NCBI GenBank assembly: GCA_944358385.1
Contig: CALVQW010000008.1
Coordinates: 17,228-81,227 of the forward strand
Length of the DNA: 64,000 bases
Source of the DNA: an uncultured Clostridia bacterium
GTDB lineage: Bacteria > Bacillota > Clostridia > Christensenellales > CAG-917
Direction: 5' to 3'
Part shown: positions 6,978-38,582 of the stretch, piece by piece
Position numbering within the stretch: the stretch's first letter is position 1
Layout: each line of letters starts with the position of its first letter
Notes under the pieces: model-generated
What the model was told of the DNA's origin: nothing
The model's database searches: none
What the model saw: only the letters and a program-made list of their open reading frames with translations
Position numbers and translations under genes: made by a program

Positions 6978-7006
6978 AAAAAGCGGGCATACGCCCGCTT
7001 TCTTTT
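6978..7006 (+). terminator. rho-independent terminator of the AKR gene
   Basis: AAGCGGGC(6981-6988) atac GCCCGCTT(6993-7000) followed by TCTTTT. Confidence 0.8.
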
Positions 7007-7068: not shown

Positions 7069-7435
7069 GCGAACTTTGAGGCGTGCTTGAACATGACGTA
7101 CACTCCTTCGGAGACGGGACTACGCGCCGCAAAGCCAAACTTTCATCGCGGGCGTCTTGCGCCCGCGTTTGAAAGTCGCGGCGCGGATCTGCGACCTCGC
7201 AAGCTAGATGAATACCTAAATAGAGGCGTCGCTCGTGCGCGTCGAGTCGCCCTCCTCGCCCCACGAGCGACGCTCAATTAGTACCGGCATCCGCTTGGTT
7301 ATGTGAGTGCGATTACCAAAATTTTTGGTAAAATCAGAAAGTTAGTCCCGCATTTTGGGAGGAGCGAACTCTATTCCGAGTGGGGGAGGAGTCCCGTAGG
7401 GGAGGTGGGGGACAATAACTCCCCTGTCAGAGGAC
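7069..7435 (+). repeat. unclassified multi-helix element, copy 1 (candidate structured RNA or MITE/PATE-like)
   Basis: Reverse-complement homolog at 26304-26709. Hand alignment gives 23 mismatches in 203 ungapped nt and 5 mismatches in 88 nt. It consists of a chain of 7-12 bp GC helices with no credible ORF. Confidence 0.75.
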
Positions 7436-7506
7436 AAGACTTTATCCCGAAGGGAAGGAGGGGGTATCTGACTCCCCCGCGAGACGTACAGCTTGTCAGC
7501 AGTATG

Positions 7507-7576: not shown

Positions 7577-7702
7577 ACTGAGCGCGATATTTGGATGCAG
7601 AACGCGAAAGCACCCCTTTTTCGGTGAGGCGCGTACTTGGACGTACGTAACGAGCCGAAAAAGGGGTGCTGACAAAGTTCTGCGCCAAATAGCGCGCTCA
7701 GT
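7577..7702 (-). repeat. long-hairpin module H1 (126 nt) overlapping the mreB-like stop codon
   Basis: Arms ACTGAGCGCGATATTTGG (7577-7594) and CCAAATAGCGCGCTCAGT (7685-7702) with one mismatch. Inner helices are GCAGAAC/GTTCTGC and GCACCCCTTTTTCGG/CCGAAAAAGGGGTGC. The apex is GCGTAC(7631-7636)..CGTACGT(7642-7648). Confidence 0.8.
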
Positions 7703-8696
7703 CTAGTTTGATGCCGATAAGATCGCTCAGGAAGCGCTTATCCTCCAAAAACTTCATGCCGCCTATGGCTACGCTGCTGGGACCGTCGCTGAGGTGGGTG
7801 AGGGGGAGTTCGAAGGCTTGTTCGAGGTACTCTTTGAGTCCGGGGATGCGGGCGGAGCCGCCGGTGAGGAAGATGCCTTTGCGGAGGATCTCGGCGGAGA
7901 GTTCCGGGGGTGTCCTGTCGAGGACGTTCATGACCACTTCGATGATGTCGTCCACGAGGGGAAGGACGGCGTCACGCATATCCGCGGCGGTGATGGCTAC
8001 ACTCTTGGGCGCACCGTCCCTTCCGCCGCCCGAAACGGCATAGCTACCCTCGTCGTTGAGGTAGAAGGAGAGAGCGGAGGTCTTGATCTTCTCCACGGTG
8101 TAGTCGCCGAGTTTGACGCCGTAATTCATATAGATGTCGTCGATGATGGCGGCATTGAAGGCGTCTCCCGCGATGTTGACGGTCACGCCGCACGCGATGC
8201 CTCGGTTGGTGACCGCAGCCACCTCCGTCTTGCCGCCGCCGATGTCGAGGAAAAGCCCGCCGATGCTGCCCGTGTAGGCGAGAAGGGAAAGCGGAGCTTC
8301 CACGAGAGTGACCTCTTTGACGCCCGCCTTGACAAAGCATTTCTCCACCGCCCTGCGGTCGCCGCTCGTCATGGAGCAAGCCACGCTGACCACGGCATTG
8401 ACCTTGGGGGCGAACACCCCGGAAGGCAGGATCTTTTTCAGGAAATGTTTGAGCAGCATGACGAACATCTCGTCATCCGCGATCATGCCCTCTTTGACGG
8501 GAGCGATGACGCGCGCGCCGCCGAGGGAGGAGGACATGATGCTCTCCGCACGGTAGCCCGCCTCGCGTATGACATACTTGTCGCCGTTCTTTTCGGCGAG
8601 AGCGATGGCAGGCTCGCGCAACACGGGACCTATCCCCTTCTGGCATATGGTGATGAACTTGCTGCCGAGGTCAACCGACAATTCTATCTGCGCCAC
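7698..8696 (-). CDS. MreB/Mbl-like actin-fold protein (divergent paralog)
   Basis: 332-aa ORF. VDLGSKF, LDIGGGKTEVA and FLTGGSARIPGL match the actin/MreB phosphate and adenosine motifs. The N-terminal region differs from the canonical MreB GIDLGTANT. Confidence 0.75.
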   Translation of the reverse strand: MAQIELSVDLGSKFITICQKGIGPVLREPAIALAEKNGDKYVIREAGYRAESIMSSSLGGARVIAPVKEGMIADDEMFVMLLKHFLKKILPSGVFAPKVNAVVSVACSMTSGDRRAVEKCFVKAGVKEVTLVEAPLSLLAYTGSIGGLFLDIGGGKTEVAAVTNRGIACGVTVNIAGDAFNAAIIDDIYMNYGVKLGDYTVEKIKTSALSFYLNDEGSYAVSGGGRDGAPKSVAITAADMRDAVLPLVDDIIEVVMNVLDRTPPELSAEILRKGIFLTGGSARIPGLKEYLEQAFELPLTHLSDGPSSVAIGGMKFLEDKRFLSDLIGIKLD

Positions 8697-17285: not shown

Positions 17286-17360
17286 ACATAAGCCTGTAAT
17301 TTACGGGCAACGCGCGTTGCGCGCATTAGCAATGACAACCAAACTTTTATAAAGGACGCT

Positions 17361-20300
17361 ATGAAAAGAAAGAAATTTTCCATTCTGATCCTGTTCCTGA
17401 TCCTCACCGTCGTTTTCGTCTCGGCGGCGTTCGTTGCGTGCAACAACACCACCGAGGAAGACACAGCCGAGGCTCTCGAACCCACGGAAGGACTGCTCAT
17501 CAGCAACTCCGACTTCAAGGTCATCGGCACTTCGGGGAGCTATCCCCACACCATCACGGACTGGACGGGCGGCAAGCTCTACTCCTCCTCGTCCGTTCCC
17601 GGCGACGTGATAGCGGGTGCGATCAGCCTCGAAGAAGCTCTCTATGCCGCGGACCGCGCATTGTGGAACGATGACGGCAGTGCGGACGAGAGCGGCAAGA
17701 CGCTCTACGAACGTCTCGTGGCGGGCGGACATTTCTCGGACGCCGAGGATGCGGTGAACAACATCCTCATGATCCACATGCCCACCTCCGACATGGCGGA
17801 GGACGACGATGACGACTACGGTCCCACCGCGTACGGCTACTCTTCCAAGTCCTTCTCTCTGGACGCCGGCTCCTACTACAAGCTGAGCGTGGACGTGCTC
17901 ACCTATGACATCGCGGGCACGGACGACGAGGACAACGTCCCGGGAGCCAGGATCTATCTCTCCTCCGCGGGCTATGCCGAGATCTCCGGCATCGACACCA
18001 AGGGCGAGTGGAAGGAATACACCATCTACATCGAGAGCGCGGCGACTTCCTCCACCTCTCTCACCCTCAATCTGGGGCTTGGCAAATACAGCTCCTACTA
18101 CCGTGACGGTCTCACTTCCGGCTACGCCTTCTTCGACAACGTGACTCTCGAAAAGATCAATGACGGCGAGGTCACCGAGGCGGAAGCCGAGGCTGTGTTC
18201 ACCGAGAAGGTGAATGAAGAAAGGATGGCATACGAAACCATCCTCGCCGACTACCGCAACGAGACCGCGACTGCGGATGACGAGACGGATGTGACTCCTC
18301 TCGCCGTACGTTACGCCGCGATGACGACGCGCACGATGACTCTCAAAGCGTCCAACGGCAGGTTCGACTTCGGTTCCACCACCATAGGCACTTCCGCTCC
18401 CTCCGGCTGGTCGCTGGTGACGGGAGAGGACGCGCCCACTTCCTACCGCTTCAACGGCGTGATCTCGGCGTCCCTCTTCGGCGACAACTACACCTCTTAC
18501 GCCGGCACCTACTACATCGACAGGACGCCCTCCACTCCCGCGACCAACCTCGTCAACGTGACGGGATATATGGACTCCCACCTGGACGGCAGCATGGGTG
18601 ACAGCGTGTATATGCTCTCCCAGCAGATGATGACGGCGCAGGGCATCCGCTCCTCCCGTAAGCTCGTCATTGAAAAGAACGGGCTTTACGCCCTCAGCGT
18701 GAGCGTGCTCACCTACAACGTGTACGGCGGCGGCGTCTCCCTCATCCTCTCCGGCGACGGCGAGGACATCGTCATCGAGGGCATCTCCGAGAATCCCTAC
18801 GACGGCACCGTCCTCTTCGGCGAGGAAAAGACGGGCAACACCCCCCACGACGACGGCTGGCGCACCTACACCTTCTACATCCGCGGCAACGAGTATAAGG
18901 ACATGTCCTACAACCTCACTCTGTGGCTGGGCACGGGCGACGCCGAGGACAACGTCGAGGAAGAATACACCTACTACTCCTCTTCCTCCTCTTCCTCTTC
19001 GGGCAGCACCCGCACCACCTACCGCGCCAACGGCAGTTTCGCTTCGGGCTGGGCGTTCTTTGACGACGTGGATCTCGTCAAATGCACGACGGAAGATTTC
19101 GACAAAGCCGTCGAAGGCATCTCTCCCTCCTACAAGCTGGATGTGGCGGGCGGCGACGAGACCGTCCTTTACACCGAACTCTCCTCCGAGAGCCATTTCG
19201 AGACCGCATCCGAACTTTACGGCAACATTTCCCGCGATTTCGCTTACGGCGGCAGTGACGACTACTCCGCAGGCACCCTCGGCAAGACCGCGGGCTGGAG
19301 CAACGTCGCCACCGACGAGGACGCTCCTCCCGTCATCAACGCGGACATCGTGACCGCGGGCACCATGCCCCTCGCCGAGAGCGAGAGCAGCAAAGCCCTC
19401 TATGACGCGCTCGGACTTGCCGCGCCCGGACTCCCCTACGACGGTGTCCCCGACTCCGGCATGATGATCAGCATCTCCGAGAACGCAGCCTATGCGTTGC
19501 GCTCCGGCGACATCACCCTGCGCGCGAACAGCACCTACGCCGTCTCCGTCTGGGTAAAGACGGTGGACGTTGAGTCCGGCAAGGGCGCGTATCTCTACCT
19601 CAAAGGTCTTGACGACAAGGATGAGGAGACCACCCTCGCCTCCTTCACCGCCATCAACACTTCCGACGAGGAAGGCAACAGCGAATGGACGGAATACACC
19701 TTCTACATCAAAGGCTCCGATGAAGGCGCGGAGAAAGTCTGGCTGGAATTCTCGCTGGGCACGGGCAACAAGTGGAGCGCGTCCACTCTGACCTCCGGCA
19801 CGGCGTTCTTTGCCAACATCAGCATGATGGACGTGACGTATGCGGACTTCTCCTCCGCATCCTCCGGCACCTACATCAAGAAGGCGGATCTCTCCACCGG
19901 CACGGTGGACGGCTCCTTCCCCAACGGCTCCTTCGGCAACATCGACTACGATGAACTCGAGGAGGCCCTCACCGCGTCCGAGGACGAGACGGACGGCACT
20001 TTGCAGAACGGCAACGCAGCCGGCGTCCCCGAGGATTGGACGCTGAGCGACCGCACCTTCACCGAGAACGAGGACGGCAGCCACAACTCCGACTTCGTGG
20101 CAGGCGTCGTCAAGCTGGAGGAATCCGAAACCGAACCCGGCGTCTGGGGCAAGAGCAAGCAGATCTCCAACCTCTTCGGCGCGGATGACGTGTTCTTCGA
20201 CACCGTCTACTCCGAGGGAGATCCCGACCTTGCAAAGGGCGCGCCTTACCTGCTCACCATAGCGGGACTCAATGACAAAGCTTACTCCGTGGGTTATCTC

Positions 20301-21869
20301 TCGGACAAGTTCACCCTTGACTCTTCCACCAACTACTCCATCAGCGTGTGGGCAAAGGCGGAGCAAGGCACCAAGGGCATGATCTTCCTCACCGGCGAGG
20401 CGTCCGGCACCGTCAAGGGCGAGGCGGACACCGACCTCTGGTACACCGTCGAGGGCGACGGGATGTGGCACAAGTACACCTTCAACATCGAGGTGGGACT
20501 CACCGACATCTCCCTGCAACTCGGTCTGTGGCTGGGCGAGAACACCGACATCACGGGCGGTGACAAGGATGCGGCGGCAAGCTCCGGCATCATCCTCTTC
20601 GACTCCGTCACCATGCACGAAGGTCTCACGGATAAGGAGATCGACGACTACACTCCCGCAGGCGAGTACGAACAGACCAAACACATCACCTTCTTCACCG
20701 ACTCCTTCGACACCCTCGAAGGCAGCAGCGAGACCACGGACGAGGAGGGCAACAACATCCTCACCGATCCCAACGGCTGGACGGGCACCCGCGGCACCGA
20801 GCAGGAAGAAGAGGACATCAACCACGGCGTCTTTAACACCAAGGATCCCAATCCCGTGTTCATCGGGCGCGATCCCGACAAGGACGAAAACGAGGACGAG
20901 AATGAGGGCAGACACTACGTCAAAGGTCTCGGTCCCGAACTCGATGTGGACGACTTCACCGCAAGCACGCAGGAGATCAATGACTGGCTCACCGAGGAAG
21001 GCATCACCTCTCCCACCCAAGAGGACGAGGACAGAGCGCGCGAGGCGATAAAGTTGGATAAATACTATCGCGCGGTCGCGGACAGGATGCTCCCCTCCGA
21101 CATCGCGGAGAAGGTGCGTGCGGGCGCGGACGGTGACAACGTCCTTCTCATCAACAACATCAACGACAGCGCGTACCGCTACGGTTCGACGGGCTACACC
21201 CTCACCGCGGAGACCGCGTACAGGATCACCGTGCGCGTGTTCACCTACGGCATAGGTCACATCGGCGATGACGGGCTGTGGACCGCCGCCGACGACAGGG
21301 GCGCGTACATCGAGCTTTACCTCGGCTCTGCGGACGGCGACGACGATCCTCTCTACTTCGAGCACGTCAACACGGCGGGCGAGTGGAAGGAATACACCTT
21401 CCTGGTGCTCGCTCCCTCCGACGACGTCACCGAGGTCTCCCTCCGTCTCGGACTCGGACGCTATGACGCGGACGACGAGTCTCAGCTGGTCAGCGGCTAC
21501 GCATTCTTCGACGCGGTCACCATCGAGGAGATCGGCGGCGAGAACGAATACGACGCGGCTGTCGAGGCTGCTCCCGAGGACGGCTCCCACGCCGACTACA
21601 TCATCCCCGAAGAGGCGGAGCGCGGCGCGACGGACGACGGTGAGGACGACGGTACGGATGTTCCTTCCGGCGGCTTCAACCTCGATGCTCTGTGGTGGAT
21701 GATCCCGACCATCGTCATCGGTCTCGCCATCATCGCGGTCGTGATCGTCTACTTCGTCAAGAAGTACCGCAAGAAGTTCGCCAAGAAGACTCCCGACGAG
21801 CCGACCGACAGCATCTCCTCCTCCAACGTCAAGAGGAAGAAGGACGACTACGACTCCTTCTCCGAGTGA
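17361..21869 (+). CDS. 1502-aa acidic cell-surface protein with five divergent beta-sandwich-like modules, an N-terminal signal/lipobox-like peptide and a C-terminal TM anchor
   Basis: MKRKKFSILILFLILTVVFVSAAFVAC signal. Each module ends with a recurring core of type Y.LSV.V.T..........Y........(E/G)W.(E/K)YTF.I......L.L.LG........SG.AFFD. TM helix WWMIPTIVIGLAIIAVVIVYFV followed by a basic tail. Flanked by the promoter above and a strong terminator. Confidence 0.85.
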   Translation: MKRKKFSILILFLILTVVFVSAAFVACNNTTEEDTAEALEPTEGLLISNSDFKVIGTSGSYPHTITDWTGGKLYSSSSVPGDVIAGAISLEEALYAADRALWNDDGSADESGKTLYERLVAGGHFSDAEDAVNNILMIHMPTSDMAEDDDDDYGPTAYGYSSKSFSLDAGSYYKLSVDVLTYDIAGTDDEDNVPGARIYLSSAGYAEISGIDTKGEWKEYTIYIESAATSSTSLTLNLGLGKYSSYYRDGLTSGYAFFDNVTLEKINDGEVTEAEAEAVFTEKVNEERMAYETILADYRNETATADDETDVTPLAVRYAAMTTRTMTLKASNGRFDFGSTTIGTSAPSGWSLVTGEDAPTSYRFNGVISASLFGDNYTSYAGTYYIDRTPSTPATNLVNVTGYMDSHLDGSMGDSVYMLSQQMMTAQGIRSSRKLVIEKNGLYALSVSVLTYNVYGGGVSLILSGDGEDIVIEGISENPYDGTVLFGEEKTGNTPHDDGWRTYTFYIRGNEYKDMSYNLTLWLGTGDAEDNVEEEYTYYSSSSSSSSGSTRTTYRANGSFASGWAFFDDVDLVKCTTEDFDKAVEGISPSYKLDVAGGDETVLYTELSSESHFETASELYGNISRDFAYGGSDDYSAGTLGKTAGWSNVATDEDAPPVINADIVTAGTMPLAESESSKALYDALGLAAPGLPYDGVPDSGMMISISENAAYALRSGDITLRANSTYAVSVWVKTVDVESGKGAYLYLKGLDDKDEETTLASFTAINTSDEEGNSEWTEYTFYIKGSDEGAEKVWLEFSLGTGNKWSASTLTSGTAFFANISMMDVTYADFSSASSGTYIKKADLSTGTVDGSFPNGSFGNIDYDELEEALTASEDETDGTLQNGNAAGVPEDWTLSDRTFTENEDGSHNSDFVAGVVKLEESETEPGVWGKSKQISNLFGADDVFFDTVYSEGDPDLAKGAPYLLTIAGLNDKAYSVGYLSDKFTLDSSTNYSISVWAKAEQGTKGMIFLTGEASGTVKGEADTDLWYTVEGDGMWHKYTFNIEVGLTDISLQLGLWLGENTDITGGDKDAAASSGIILFDSVTMHEGLTDKEIDDYTPAGEYEQTKHITFFTDSFDTLEGSSETTDEEGNNILTDPNGWTGTRGTEQEEEDINHGVFNTKDPNPVFIGRDPDKDENEDENEGRHYVKGLGPELDVDDFTASTQEINDWLTEEGITSPTQEDEDRAREAIKLDKYYRAVADRMLPSDIAEKVRAGADGDNVLLINNINDSAYRYGSTGYTLTAETAYRITVRVFTYGIGHIGDDGLWTAADDRGAYIELYLGSADGDDDPLYFEHVNTAGEWKEYTFLVLAPSDDVTEVSLRLGLGRYDADDESQLVSGYAFFDAVTIEEIGGENEYDAAVEAAPEDGSHADYIIPEEAERGATDDGEDDGTDVPSGGFNLDALWWMIPTIVIGLAIIAVVIVYFVKKYRKKFAKKTPDEPTDSISSSNVKRKKDDYDSFSE

Positions 21870-21890
21870 TGACACTCGGTGATGCACCCT

Positions 21891-21924
21891 AAAGCCCTCT
21901 CCCCGTGAGAGGGCTTTTTGTTTT
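21891..21924 (+). terminator. rho-independent terminator of the giant gene
   Basis: AAAGCCCTCTC cccgt GAGAGGGCTTT followed by TTGTTTT. Confidence 0.85.
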
Positions 21925-22178
21925 GCGCCGCACTTCTCGCCCTCCCGTTTTTCTGCCGCCGGCACTCCCCGCTTCCCCGCCCGATCCCCTTCTGCTTTCG
22001 CACAGCGTTCCGCAGTTTCATCGACACGCCCTTACACGCCGACACTCTCTTTCCGCCCTCTCCCCGCCCGCGCACTCCGCGCCGACCTGCTCACTCCCTT
22101 CCGAACAGCCTGCCGCAGCCCTTCCTCTTGCAGAATGTTTTTCCTGCGGCACGCATATTGTGGATTTGAGGCGAAAAA

Positions 22179-26211: not shown

Positions 26212-26295
26212 GGGTTCAGGCGCGCTTGCTCGGAGTGTTCGTCGGGTTCAGGCGCGCTCGCTCAAAGTGTGCGTCGTGCTCAAAGAGTGTAAAAC
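26212..26295. repeat. 32-nt tandem direct repeat, about 2.6 copies
   Basis: GGGTTCAGGCGCGCTTGCTCGGAGTGTTCGTC (26212-26243), GGGTTCAGGCGCGCTCGCTCAAAGTGTGCGTC (26244-26275), and a partial copy GTGCTCAAAGAGTGTAAAAC. Confidence 0.8.
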
Positions 26296-26303
26296 GGGCT
26301 GAC

Positions 26304-26709
26304 GTCCTCTGACAGGGGAGTGAAAGTCCCCCTCCTCCCCTACGGGACTCCTCCCCCACTCGGAATAGAGTTCACTCCTCCCAAAATGCGGTACTGACTT
26401 TTTCATAAAGGCGCAAACCGCGTCTTTATGAAAACACCTCTTGAAAAAAGTTTGAGCCTCGCACTCACATAACCAAGCGGCGAACAGTACTCACTAAACG
26501 TCGCTCGTGGGGCGAGGAGGGCAACTCGACGCGCACGAGCGACGTTTCTACTTAATTTCTCATCTAGCTTGCGAGATCGCAGATTCGCGCCGCGACTTTC
26601 AAGCGCGAGCGCAAGACGCCCGCGGTGAAAGTTTGGCTTTGCGGCGCGTAGTTCCGTCTCCGAAAAAGAGACGTCATACTCAAATACGCCCGCTCAACCG
26701 CAAGTTCGC
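26304..26709 (-). repeat. unclassified multi-helix element, copy 2 (inverted relative to copy 1)
   Basis: rc(26459-26661) aligns ungapped to 7110-7312, and rc(26304-26391) aligns to 7348-7435. A different hairpin (26402-26432) replaces the copy-1 hairpin (7313-7331). Confidence 0.75.
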
Positions 26710-26819
26710 TGAACGCCGCCATTTGGATGAGCTGCGCGAAAAAGCCCCTTTCACAAAAGGGAGCGTACCAAATCGTACGTGACCGCATTGCGGAAGGGGC
26801 TTTGACAAAGCAGATCGCT
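26704..26819 (-). repeat. hairpin module H2 (lacks the outer 3' arm), terminator-like on the minus strand
   Basis: Its 5' arm TTCGCTGAACGCCGCCATTT is identical to the H3 arm. Helix AAAGCCCCTT (26741-26750) pairs with AAGGGGCTTT (26794-26803), and a minus-strand T-run follows. The apex is GCGTAC(26763-26768)..CGTACGT(26774-26780). Confidence 0.65.
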
Positions 26820-26835
26820 GGACTAACGCTAATTC

Positions 26836-26961
26836 GCTGAACGCCGCCATTTTGCGTCAGACAAGGAAGATGCCCTGCCGCGGGTGCGTGGCGTACTTTC
26901 CGTACGTGAGCAATCGCGGCAGGGCGTCTGACGCAGTATCACACAAAATGGTGGCGTTCAG
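26836..26961 (-). repeat. long-hairpin module H3 (126 nt) overlapping the stop codon of the AGPS-like gene
   Basis: Arms GCTGAACGCCGCCATTTTG and CAAAATGGTGGCGTTCAG with one G-T pair. Inner helices are CGTCAGAC/GTCTGACG and GCCCTGCCGCG/CGCGGCAGGGC. The apex is GCGTAC(26891-26896)..CGTACGT(26901-26907). Confidence 0.8.
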
Positions 26962-38400: not shown

Positions 38401-38540
38401 ACGCACCTCCGCGACCATCCTAACGCTTCTCCCCGCGCGGAAAACGACGTATGAGCGCGAAAAGAGGGAGAGAAGCGGAAAACATGACAAAACGCGCCCG
38501 CGTTGTCATCCTCCACTGTTGAAAGATCGCGGCAGGGCGG

Positions 38541-38582
38541 GAAAAATGACAAAACGCGCCCGCGTAATCGACGCAGGGCGCG
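38541..38582 (-). terminator. rho-independent terminator after rsmI
   Basis: Minus strand: CGCGCCC...GGGCGCG interrupted stem (plus strand 38555-38582), followed by TTTTGTCATTTTT. Confidence 0.65.

Follow-up and report, generated by a model that had tools for sequence, protein, structure and literature searches.

What kind of element occupies the two gene-free gaps of a 64,000-nt stretch of DNA from an uncultured Clostridia bacterium (contig CALVQW010000008.1; the whole stretch is referred to as the window), one between an aldo-keto reductase (AKR) gene and an mreB-like gene and the other between the gene for an FAD-linked oxidase and murC? Both gaps hold a copy of the same sequence, the two in inverted orientation. 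Our comparisons indicate that these copies belong to an undescribed element family found in a narrow clade of uncultured gut Clostridia, whose members are predicted to adopt a complex multi-domain fold that is conserved and strand-specific. Close relatives differ in their copies, which have been replaced, inverted, gained, lost, or eroded. We tentatively favor, without holding it firmly, the view that this is a non-autonomous mobile element that would act through a folded single-stranded, probably RNA, form.

The repeat had been recognized in an initial annotation of the window, and its alignments could be reproduced. Positions 7110-7312 match the reverse complement of 26459-26661 without gaps, with exactly the reported 23 mismatches in 203 nt, and positions 7348-7435 match that of 26304-26391 with 5 mismatches in 88 nt. 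A repeat search returned the arm pairs 7107-7326/26445-26664 (87%) and 7333-7435/26304-26406 (91%), which are the sole long repeats in the window, and the two copies align by blastn with an E value of 4e-103. Between the two blocks, copy 1 has the hairpin TTACCAAAATTTTTGGTAA, and copy 2 has a different short stem and an extra 32-nt hairpin. The span first assigned to copy 1 (7069-7435) holds as a repeat but not in its start, as homology begins near 7092 by nhmmer; an ungapped comparison of 7069-7109 with the reverse complement of 26662-26702 gives 28 mismatches in 41 positions, and the gapped alignment has an indel there. The revised extents are as follows.

7092-7439, plus strand: copy 1, the short form of subfamily A (nhmmer with the A2 profile, E = 1e-93; alignment A2).
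26303-26677, minus strand: copy 2, the long form of subfamily A (nhmmer, E = 3e-93; alignments A1 and A2), with its core at 26459-26480, its leader at 26654-26664, and the extra 32-nt hairpin at about 26398-26435.

Both gaps contain stretches of 40-107 codons without a stop. Among 31 copies, however, no conserved reading frame was found, the longest stop-free frame shifting in strand, frame, and position from copy to copy. Because no frame is conserved and the indels between copies are not multiples of three, the assertion that there is no credible open reading frame (ORF) in these gaps holds.

The description of the element as a pair of copies proved too narrow, since the window samples a dispersed family. 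The search of related Clostridia that had been proposed was productive, and we now count ~45 copies or fragments in at least five related species of uncultured Clostridia represented by metagenome-assembled genomes (MAGs; Ca. Limadaptatus and relatives) and in gut metagenomes. A 22-nt stretch, CCGCTTNGTTATGTNAGTGCGA, is common to all versions of the element and served as the scan pattern for finding further loci. Scanning four species-representative MAGs gave 13 true loci and one chance match (true loci: five in Ca. Limadaptatus stercoravium, five in uncultured Clostridia MAG SI.A15, one in BRZ_ET bin92, and two in HGM11451), and scanning gut metagenomes gave 15 true loci and two chance matches; the chance matches (L021, L032, and L036), which share just the 22-mer, were set aside. 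A fifth species (GCA_017886755.1) contributed one decayed copy (L044), and nhmmer produced 57 matches over 45 loci. Copies occur about once per 30-70 kb (2 per 64 kb in the window; one sample has at least 7 on 475 kb), and many contigs break or end within one. The elements are 300-460 nt long and form four subfamilies by identity, A (82-98%), B (86-93%), C (73-98%), and D (86-90%), with 58-78% identity between subfamilies; several subfamilies coexist within one MAG and also within the species of the window. The element had no blastn match in phage and plasmid collections, neither the core nor the G-rich motif was found in IMG/VR, and a literature search found no description of the family.

Support for the fold comes from a 25-copy alignment (A2) and a 49-pair structure, whose parts are listed here in the coordinates of copy 1.

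7100-7117, plus strand: 5' leader ACACTCCTTCGGAGACGG, conserved in all copies at unrelated loci, with an invariant TTCG.
7123-7185, plus strand: 5' domain made of helices P2 (7123-7130/7178-7185), P3 (7139-7145/7170-7176), and P4 (7147-7154/7160-7167).
7190-7201, plus strand: small hairpin, followed by a conserved TAARTAG.
7226-7273, plus strand: hairpin with a 12-bp stem (7226-7237/7262-7273) and loop CCCTCCTCGCCCC, with a compensatory G-C to A-U change between copy 1 and copy 2.
7252-7264, plus strand: 5' strand of a long-range helix, CTCCTC g CCCCAC, which pairs with 7380-7391 (99-100% of cells paired).
7291-7312, plus strand: invariant core CCGCTTGGTTATGTGAGTGCGA, with only three variable positions in the 25 aligned copies of all subfamilies.
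7313-7331, plus strand: variable hairpin TTACCAAAATTTTTGGTAA, different in sequence in each subfamily and always present as a hairpin.
7357-7401, plus strand: G-rich 3' domain with GGGAGGAG, including the helix strand 7380-7391 and a CCC-GNA-GGG hairpin (7393-7401).
7407-7435, plus strand: terminal hairpin GGGGG...CTCCCC (7407-7424) and end motif TGTCAGAGGAC, conserved at unrelated loci.

The helices named in the initial annotation are present at the positions that it gave, and three of them carry compensatory changes in other species. Its picture of a structured non-coding multi-helix element stands, but the long-range helix and the invariant core had been overlooked, as had a second 3'-end remnant at 7445-7499 and the turnover between strains. 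Over the 49 pairs, 97.2% of cells are paired, compared with 44-55% when the partners are slid by 1-3 columns; double changes occur in 11 pairs (78 cells) as against 0-2 pairs after sliding, and the covariation score is 0.172 as against 0.004-0.034. When all column pairs were scanned, the covarying helices recovered were P3, P4, and the long-range helix. Seven pairs in P3 and P4 show double changes across species, with P3 occurring as ACUUUCA/UGAAAGU, ACUUGCA/UGCAAGU, and GCGUUCA/UGAACGC, and P2 is invariant. The long-range helix consists of 12 bp with one bulge (CUCCUC.CCCAC with GUGGGGGAGGAG) and joins a CCUCC hairpin loop to a GGAGG tract across ~120 nt. RNAalifold predicted it independently on A2, with three covarying pairs, and it changes at three positions (C-G to U-A, A-U to G-C, and C-G to U-A). 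Part of its 5' strand can pair locally instead, and both pairings covary, which may reflect an alternative fold or may be a by-product of the differences between subfamilies.

Subfamily B lacks the P3-P4 arm, with a tetraloop capping P2, and at the place of the 7226-7273 hairpin the other subfamilies have a different stem, CACGGGC/GCCCGUG. The variable hairpin is closed by invariant GUGCG (7307-7311) and CGCAU (7349-7353). Within the 3' domain, GGGGGAGGA and CCCG.AGG are invariant and the pair 7358/7377 covaries as GC/CG/GU, and the 3' tail that follows is of two types (GCGAGACG.. or TGTCAGRGGACGTCAG..). The two ends of the element repeat each other imperfectly across copies, in direct orientation and over ~17 nt around a GAGACG core, as CTCnnnnCG-GAGACG-G (5') and CTCCCCGC-GAGACG-T (3').

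Both strands of the element fold better than shuffled sequences (z of -5.0 to -5.9), and thermodynamics alone therefore selects no strand. The 49 pairs include 68 G·U/U·G cells compared with 3 A·C/C·A cells, which assigns the fold to the strand that is co-directional with the upstream gene. This co-directionality, reported for the two window copies, is borne out more widely, as the 5' neighbor is co-directional in 16 of 17 Pfam-validated copies (binomial P of ~1e-4 relative to random orientation); gene calls outside L001-L010 and L025 were made by codon-position GC, and only those with a Pfam match were counted as validated. Antisense copies number 0 among 11-12 tandem-gene contexts. Convergent genes flank about nine copies, and divergent genes flank two or three; the downstream gene is convergent in ~9 of 20 copies and co-directional about half of the time. 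Five pairs of copies 5-20 kb apart (in the window, L026, L028, L038, and L042) face in opposite directions, so that orientation follows the local genes and a tie to the replication strand was not seen. The copies sit behind the 3' ends of genes and past their terminators, at 55-95 nt in the window and at 10 to ~95 nt across the family, often with other repeats in between. A terminator scan placed the two upstream terminators in the window as follows.

6980-7001, plus strand: intrinsic terminator of the upstream AKR gene (PF00248 in strains L001-L009); copy 1 begins ~90 nt downstream.
26745-26762, minus strand: terminator of the upstream FAD-linked oxidase gene (PF01565/PF02913), ~55 nt ahead of copy 2.

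No common function theme was apparent among the genes next to the copies, which include those for Spo0A, SSB, PBP, L17, PNPase, GAPDH, and rubrerythrin upstream and murE, PFK, FTHFS, SpoIIE, IspDF, and TilS downstream. An all-against-all blastp comparison of the flanking ORFs found only synteny between species and no recurrent neighbor protein. One copy (L024:3755-7781) lies in sense orientation inside the dcw cluster, between PBP transpeptidase and Mur ligase genes, and is probably co-transcribed with them.

The turnover of the element is seen most directly in the AKR/mreB gap. Ten strains (L001-L010) have an identical MreB-like protein, and all ten hold some version of the element in this gap, which measures 629-1034 nt in nine of them and is incomplete in L010. 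The occupant belongs to subfamily A or to subfamily B, combines the body of A with the tail of B, or is an A-long copy in inverted orientation. The inverted copies (L005, L008, and L010) are 94-97% identical to window copy 2 at the murC locus, and those in L005 and L008 are of a different subfamily copied from another locus, not the resident copy flipped. Between strains the element is 87-90% identical, compared with 96-98.5% for the flanking genes. Behind copy 1 the window holds a further feature:

7445-7499, plus strand: B-type 3'-end remnant CCCGAAGGGAAGGAGGGGG...CCCCCGCGAGACGTACAGC (nhmmer 7445-7494, profile positions 298-347, E = 3e-7).

The layout of this remnant is identical to that of the 3' end of the element in L001 and L009, and the presence of a B-type stump behind an A-type copy therefore indicates that an older occupant of the gap was overwritten. 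At other loci, L018 and L020 have their downstream gene in common and carry the element in opposite orientations. L013 holds a copy between a resolvase gene and the next gene, and in eight strains with a 99% identical resolvase (L045-L052) the gap is 96 nt long and has no element. Mini forms in L030 and L040 have an internal deletion and retain just the leader and the terminal hairpin. On the murC side, a contig of the same species stops 16 nt before murC. In a sister species (L044:2063-2383) the FAD-linked oxidase/murC gap holds spoVG on the opposite strand; in the species of the window it holds copy 2 and no spoVG. With spoVG in this position, the sister species provides no clean empty site there. 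The intergenic DNA of the syntenic loci L012 and L017 could not be aligned.

We compared the element with known classes of RNA and mobile DNA. Rfam 15 was searched, at thresholds of E≤5-10, with the two gaps and with six loci from other species, and returned only chance matches of 12-23 bits to unrelated small RNAs (sRNAs). As Rfam is negative even at E≤10, the initial judgment that the element cannot be fitted to RNase P, transfer-messenger RNA, SRP, 6S, T-box, or a known riboswitch is upheld. ARAGORN found no transfer RNA or transfer-messenger RNA in the window. The suggestion that it resembles miniature inverted-repeat or palindrome-associated transposable elements (MITEs and PATEs) was not borne out. 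A comparison of the ends of ~30 copies revealed no consistent terminal inverted repeat (TIR), and there is no target-site duplication (TSD), so the element lacks the defining features of this class. Pairing of ACGTCTC with GAGACGT is possible only in some copies of subfamily A, and most leaders (ACACTC..) cannot form it. The GAGACG motifs were rejected as a TSD, since different loci have them in conserved form and, within a copy, one end does not covary with the other; in L031, for example, GAAGATG at one end is mismatched with GAGACG at the other.

Several more specific candidates were rejected as well. PATEs or omega RNAs of the IS200/IS605 type were rejected on the absence of TnpA, TnpB, and IscB among the 38 neighboring genes and of an Rfam match to HEARO or IS605-orfB. 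A riboswitch or other 5' leader does not agree with downstream genes that are often convergent and unrelated in function, and an inverton does not agree with flanking units that are direct rather than inverted repeats. REP/BIME units, which are imperfect palindromes of 20-40 nt that alternate in orientation, differ in that the body of the present element is a non-palindromic sequence of 300-460 nt with long-range pairing. In L013 the stop codon of a 201-aa serine recombinase of the resolvase family (L013:2306-2962) abuts the 3' end of the element, and this gene was rejected as a partner because it belongs to a very large, widespread family and because strains whose resolvase gene is 99% identical have no element; near-identical resolvase genes lie on many contigs of other samples that have no element. 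A likeness by eye to P4 of RNase P (GGAGGAAAGCCCG) and to 16S rRNA (GGAAGGUGGGGA..GACGUCA) was dismissed, as there was no model match and the motif order is wrong.

The many copies, the subfamilies, the replacement and loss between strains, and the retention of the termini in deletion derivatives favor a mobile element. Its folded single strand would most simply be RNA made by read-through from the upstream gene. On this account the fold and core would be kept because a trans-acting factor, encoded elsewhere in the genome, has to recognize or use them when the element is copied into new sites near terminators, and the two direct-repeat termini would act as the cis-acting ends. Several observations weigh against such an element. 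No sigma-70-like promoter was found in either window gap and the copies lie after terminators, so that transcription has to be assumed. The initial report of no transposase or reverse transcriptase nearby is confirmed across 38 flanking genes (~400 kb around the copies), which include no transposase, reverse transcriptase, nuclease, TnpB/IscB, or IS110. No clean pair of filled and empty sites with exact junctions was obtained, and the whole intergenic segment differs at both polymorphic loci, such that homologous exchange of the flanks could explain the turnover without transposition. Finally, most of the double changes separate the four subfamilies, and the covariation therefore represents few independent events. 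A more far-reaching proposal, which we consider unlikely, is a new class of large complex-folded RNA that would be a genomic parasite without a linked protein gene. It would be either a terminator-seeking ORF-less retroelement or ribozyme, or a guide or scaffold RNA served in trans by an enzyme not so far associated with it, and the invariant 22-nt core and the long-range helix, which resembles a Shine-Dalgarno/anti-Shine-Dalgarno pairing, would form its functional center.

The fold and orientation would be explained equally well by a multicopy non-coding RNA (ncRNA) that serves the host, either as an appendix of the 3'-untranslated region that protects or regulates the upstream message or as an sRNA gene family, and we regard this as possible although somewhat doubtful. 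Such copies would be kept by selection on the action of the RNA, for example of its GGAGG tracts and CCUCC loop with ribosomes or mRNAs, and recombination among them would account for the strain differences. Functional RNAs typically show a complex fold of this sort, in which some unpaired nucleotides are invariant, a helix spans a long distance, and one peripheral arm is dispensable. The small hairpin insertions fall mostly in predicted loops, and the strong strand asymmetry, the sense orientation behind genes, and the retention of some version in the AKR/mreB gap of 10/10 strains are also in keeping with a host function. However, the copies lie after and not before terminators with no promoter-like site found, their neighbors have no common theme, and sRNA genes do not usually reach so high a copy density or undergo replacement within a locus; the empty site and the copies that are decayed, truncated, or mini indicate that single copies are dispensable. 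It is improbable, in our view, that the element is a DNA-level repeat, whether a REP/BIME- or BOX-like mosaic or an ORF-less cassette recombining at the GAGACG-core direct repeats, in which the hairpins would matter as cruciforms or single-stranded DNA. The same gaps do hold ~120-150-nt palindromes, GGGGWCCCC mini-hairpins, and tandem units of 32 and 44 nt, the element is built in modules with a variable number of flanking units, and the copies have direct-repeat termini and, in many cases, tandem leader-plus-tail "solo" units on their 5' side; the enrichment between convergent genes is also like that of BOX, RUP, and SPRITE (PMC3049150). Nevertheless, the pairing belongs to one strand, as the ratio of G·U to A·C cells shows, and a long-range helix and conserved unpaired tracts are unexpected in duplex-DNA sites. 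Moreover, the end motifs are mismatched within a copy, unlike a duplication, no linked recombinase was found among the neighbors examined, and the opposite orientations of nearby copies argue against a replication-strand-specific transposition of single-stranded DNA.

A distinctly improbable alternative is that the copies are orphan guide or scaffold RNAs, such as HEARO/omega RNA of IscB, omega RNA of TnpB, or bridge RNA of IS110, which lack their protein and are served in trans by a master element. A multicopy, structured, RNA-like element of 300-400 nt that lacks a TIR and TSD and has a long-range helix resembling a pseudoknot conforms to the general pattern of the RNAs associated with IS200/IS605, and HEARO copies without an ORF are known. 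On the other hand, neither HEARO nor any other Rfam family matched at E≤10, no IscB, TnpB, or IS110 gene lies beside the ~25 copies examined, and both flanks are conserved between loci as family features (32-nt units and tails), so that no locus-specific guide segment adjoins either end. The least credible reading, which the tests of class membership have already refuted in large part, is that of a reduced self-splicing intron of group I or of a class C-like group II type, ORF-less and homing behind terminators. Class C group II introns do lie downstream of terminators with the same orientation as the gene before them, and the solo units of leader and tail look like target sites that have no intron. 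However, Intron_gpI, Intron_gpII, and group-II-D1D4 gave no match at E≤10, ~350 nt leaves no room for six domains, the element has ACACTC... and ...GAGACG as its boundaries and no GUGYG start, there is no domain V, and the distance from the terminator is not fixed.

Set beside these systems, the family is in kind a structured interspersed repeat or mobile RNA element and a member of none of the classes compared. With class C group II introns, whose RNA fold is needed for spread, it shares the position behind terminators in the direction of the upstream gene, but it has no group II signatures, is one-third to one-half of the minimal size, and varies in its distance from the terminator. Like the HEARO/omega RNAs of IscB and TnpB, whose copies are partly protein-less, it is a structured RNA or RNA-like element of a few hundred nucleotides, multicopy, with neither TIR nor TSD, and it behaves like a mobile unit; unlike them it has no HEARO match, adjacent nuclease gene, or variable guide. 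It resembles OLE, raiA, ROOL, and GOLLD in size class, complexity of fold, Clostridia or gut hosts, and an undefined biochemical role. A genome has one or a few copies of those RNAs, placed at characteristic loci, and Rfam includes them, whereas the present element matches nothing in Rfam, reaches tens of copies in a genome, and turns over between strains. BOX, RUP, and SPRITE are enriched between convergent genes (PMC3049150), and, like these and ERIC/BIME, the element is multicopy, non-coding, geneless, and exclusively intergenic, lies behind genes and between convergent genes, folds strongly if transcribed, is built of modular sub-units, and varies between strains (PMC3049150). It differs from these repeats in being 2-3 times larger, without TIR or target duplication, in folding into several domains, with a helix formed at long range and an unpaired core that does not vary, rather than into one long hairpin, and in pairing on one strand with a near-absolute sense orientation.

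Bacterial interspersed repeats are usually simple hairpins. The present family behaves in populations as a mobile element does, and it bears the evolutionary marks of a functional RNA, with compensatory base changes, a helix formed over a long distance, a core of unpaired nucleotides that does not vary, and a peripheral arm that can be dispensed with. Should spread require the fold, this would point to an RNA or single-strand route of mobilization aimed at terminator-proximal sites and carried out by an enzyme as yet unnamed in these organisms. If it instead serves the host, the family would be a new class of large ncRNA in Clostridia that are common in the gut. In either case the copies break MAG assemblies and create strain-variable intergenic regions, and inverted repeats 5-20 kb apart could drive rearrangements.

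The element is accompanied by other repeats. A 32-nt flanking unit precedes the 5' leader in most copies; a clean copy of the unit lies at 26240-26268 of the window, and the following units adjoin the two window copies.

7073-7101, plus strand: degenerate 32-nt unit ACTTTGAG.GCGTGCTTGAACATGACG (comparison of the 5' flanks of 35 copies).
26212-26275, minus strand: a tandem pair of 32-nt units immediately 3' of copy 2 (repeat search, 88%; pattern search; comparison of 3' flanks).

The tandem 32-nt units (ACACTYYGAGCGNGCGNGCCTGAACNCGACG) each consist of two 16-nt half-units and are found on both sides of the element, conserved across species. A second family comprises palindromic elements of ~110-150 nt with a central CACGTACG...GTACG hairpin, which may double as terminators. 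In the window it is represented at 7582-7705, where the copy ends in inverted repeats (e.g. CTGAGCGCGATATTTGG...CCAAATAGCGCGCTCAG), and at 26745-26960, where two copies lie in tandem, each ending in AAATGGCGGCGTTCAGCGAA; palindromic elements also flank the larger element at the unrelated loci L011, L014, L016, L023, L031, and L040. Mini hairpin inserts of ~35-45 nt with GGGG(A/T)CCCCGC... ends, which resemble tiny MITEs, occur inside the copies of L006, L007, L012, L013, L014, L018, L038, L039, L042, and L044, nested at about six positions that are nearly all predicted loops or junctions. A tandem repeat of ~44 nt (TTTATGGTAGGCAGCGNNACGCCCC...) is present in the AKR/mreB gap at L002:4000-4300 and L008:4000-4250, and is confined to strains with the inverted copy.

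Elsewhere in the window, the ribosomal protein L10 leader (RF00557, 46137-46265, minus strand, 55.8 bits) is the only Rfam match at gathering score. A 29-nt direct repeat, GCGGAAAACATGACAAAACGCGCCCGCGT, occurs at 38475-38503 and 38537-38565, the two units being 93% identical and 62 nt apart. A very long ORF (17301-21965, ~1500 aa) contains internal repeats of 26-44 nt at spacings from 849 to ~1,700 nt and probably encodes a repetitive surface protein.

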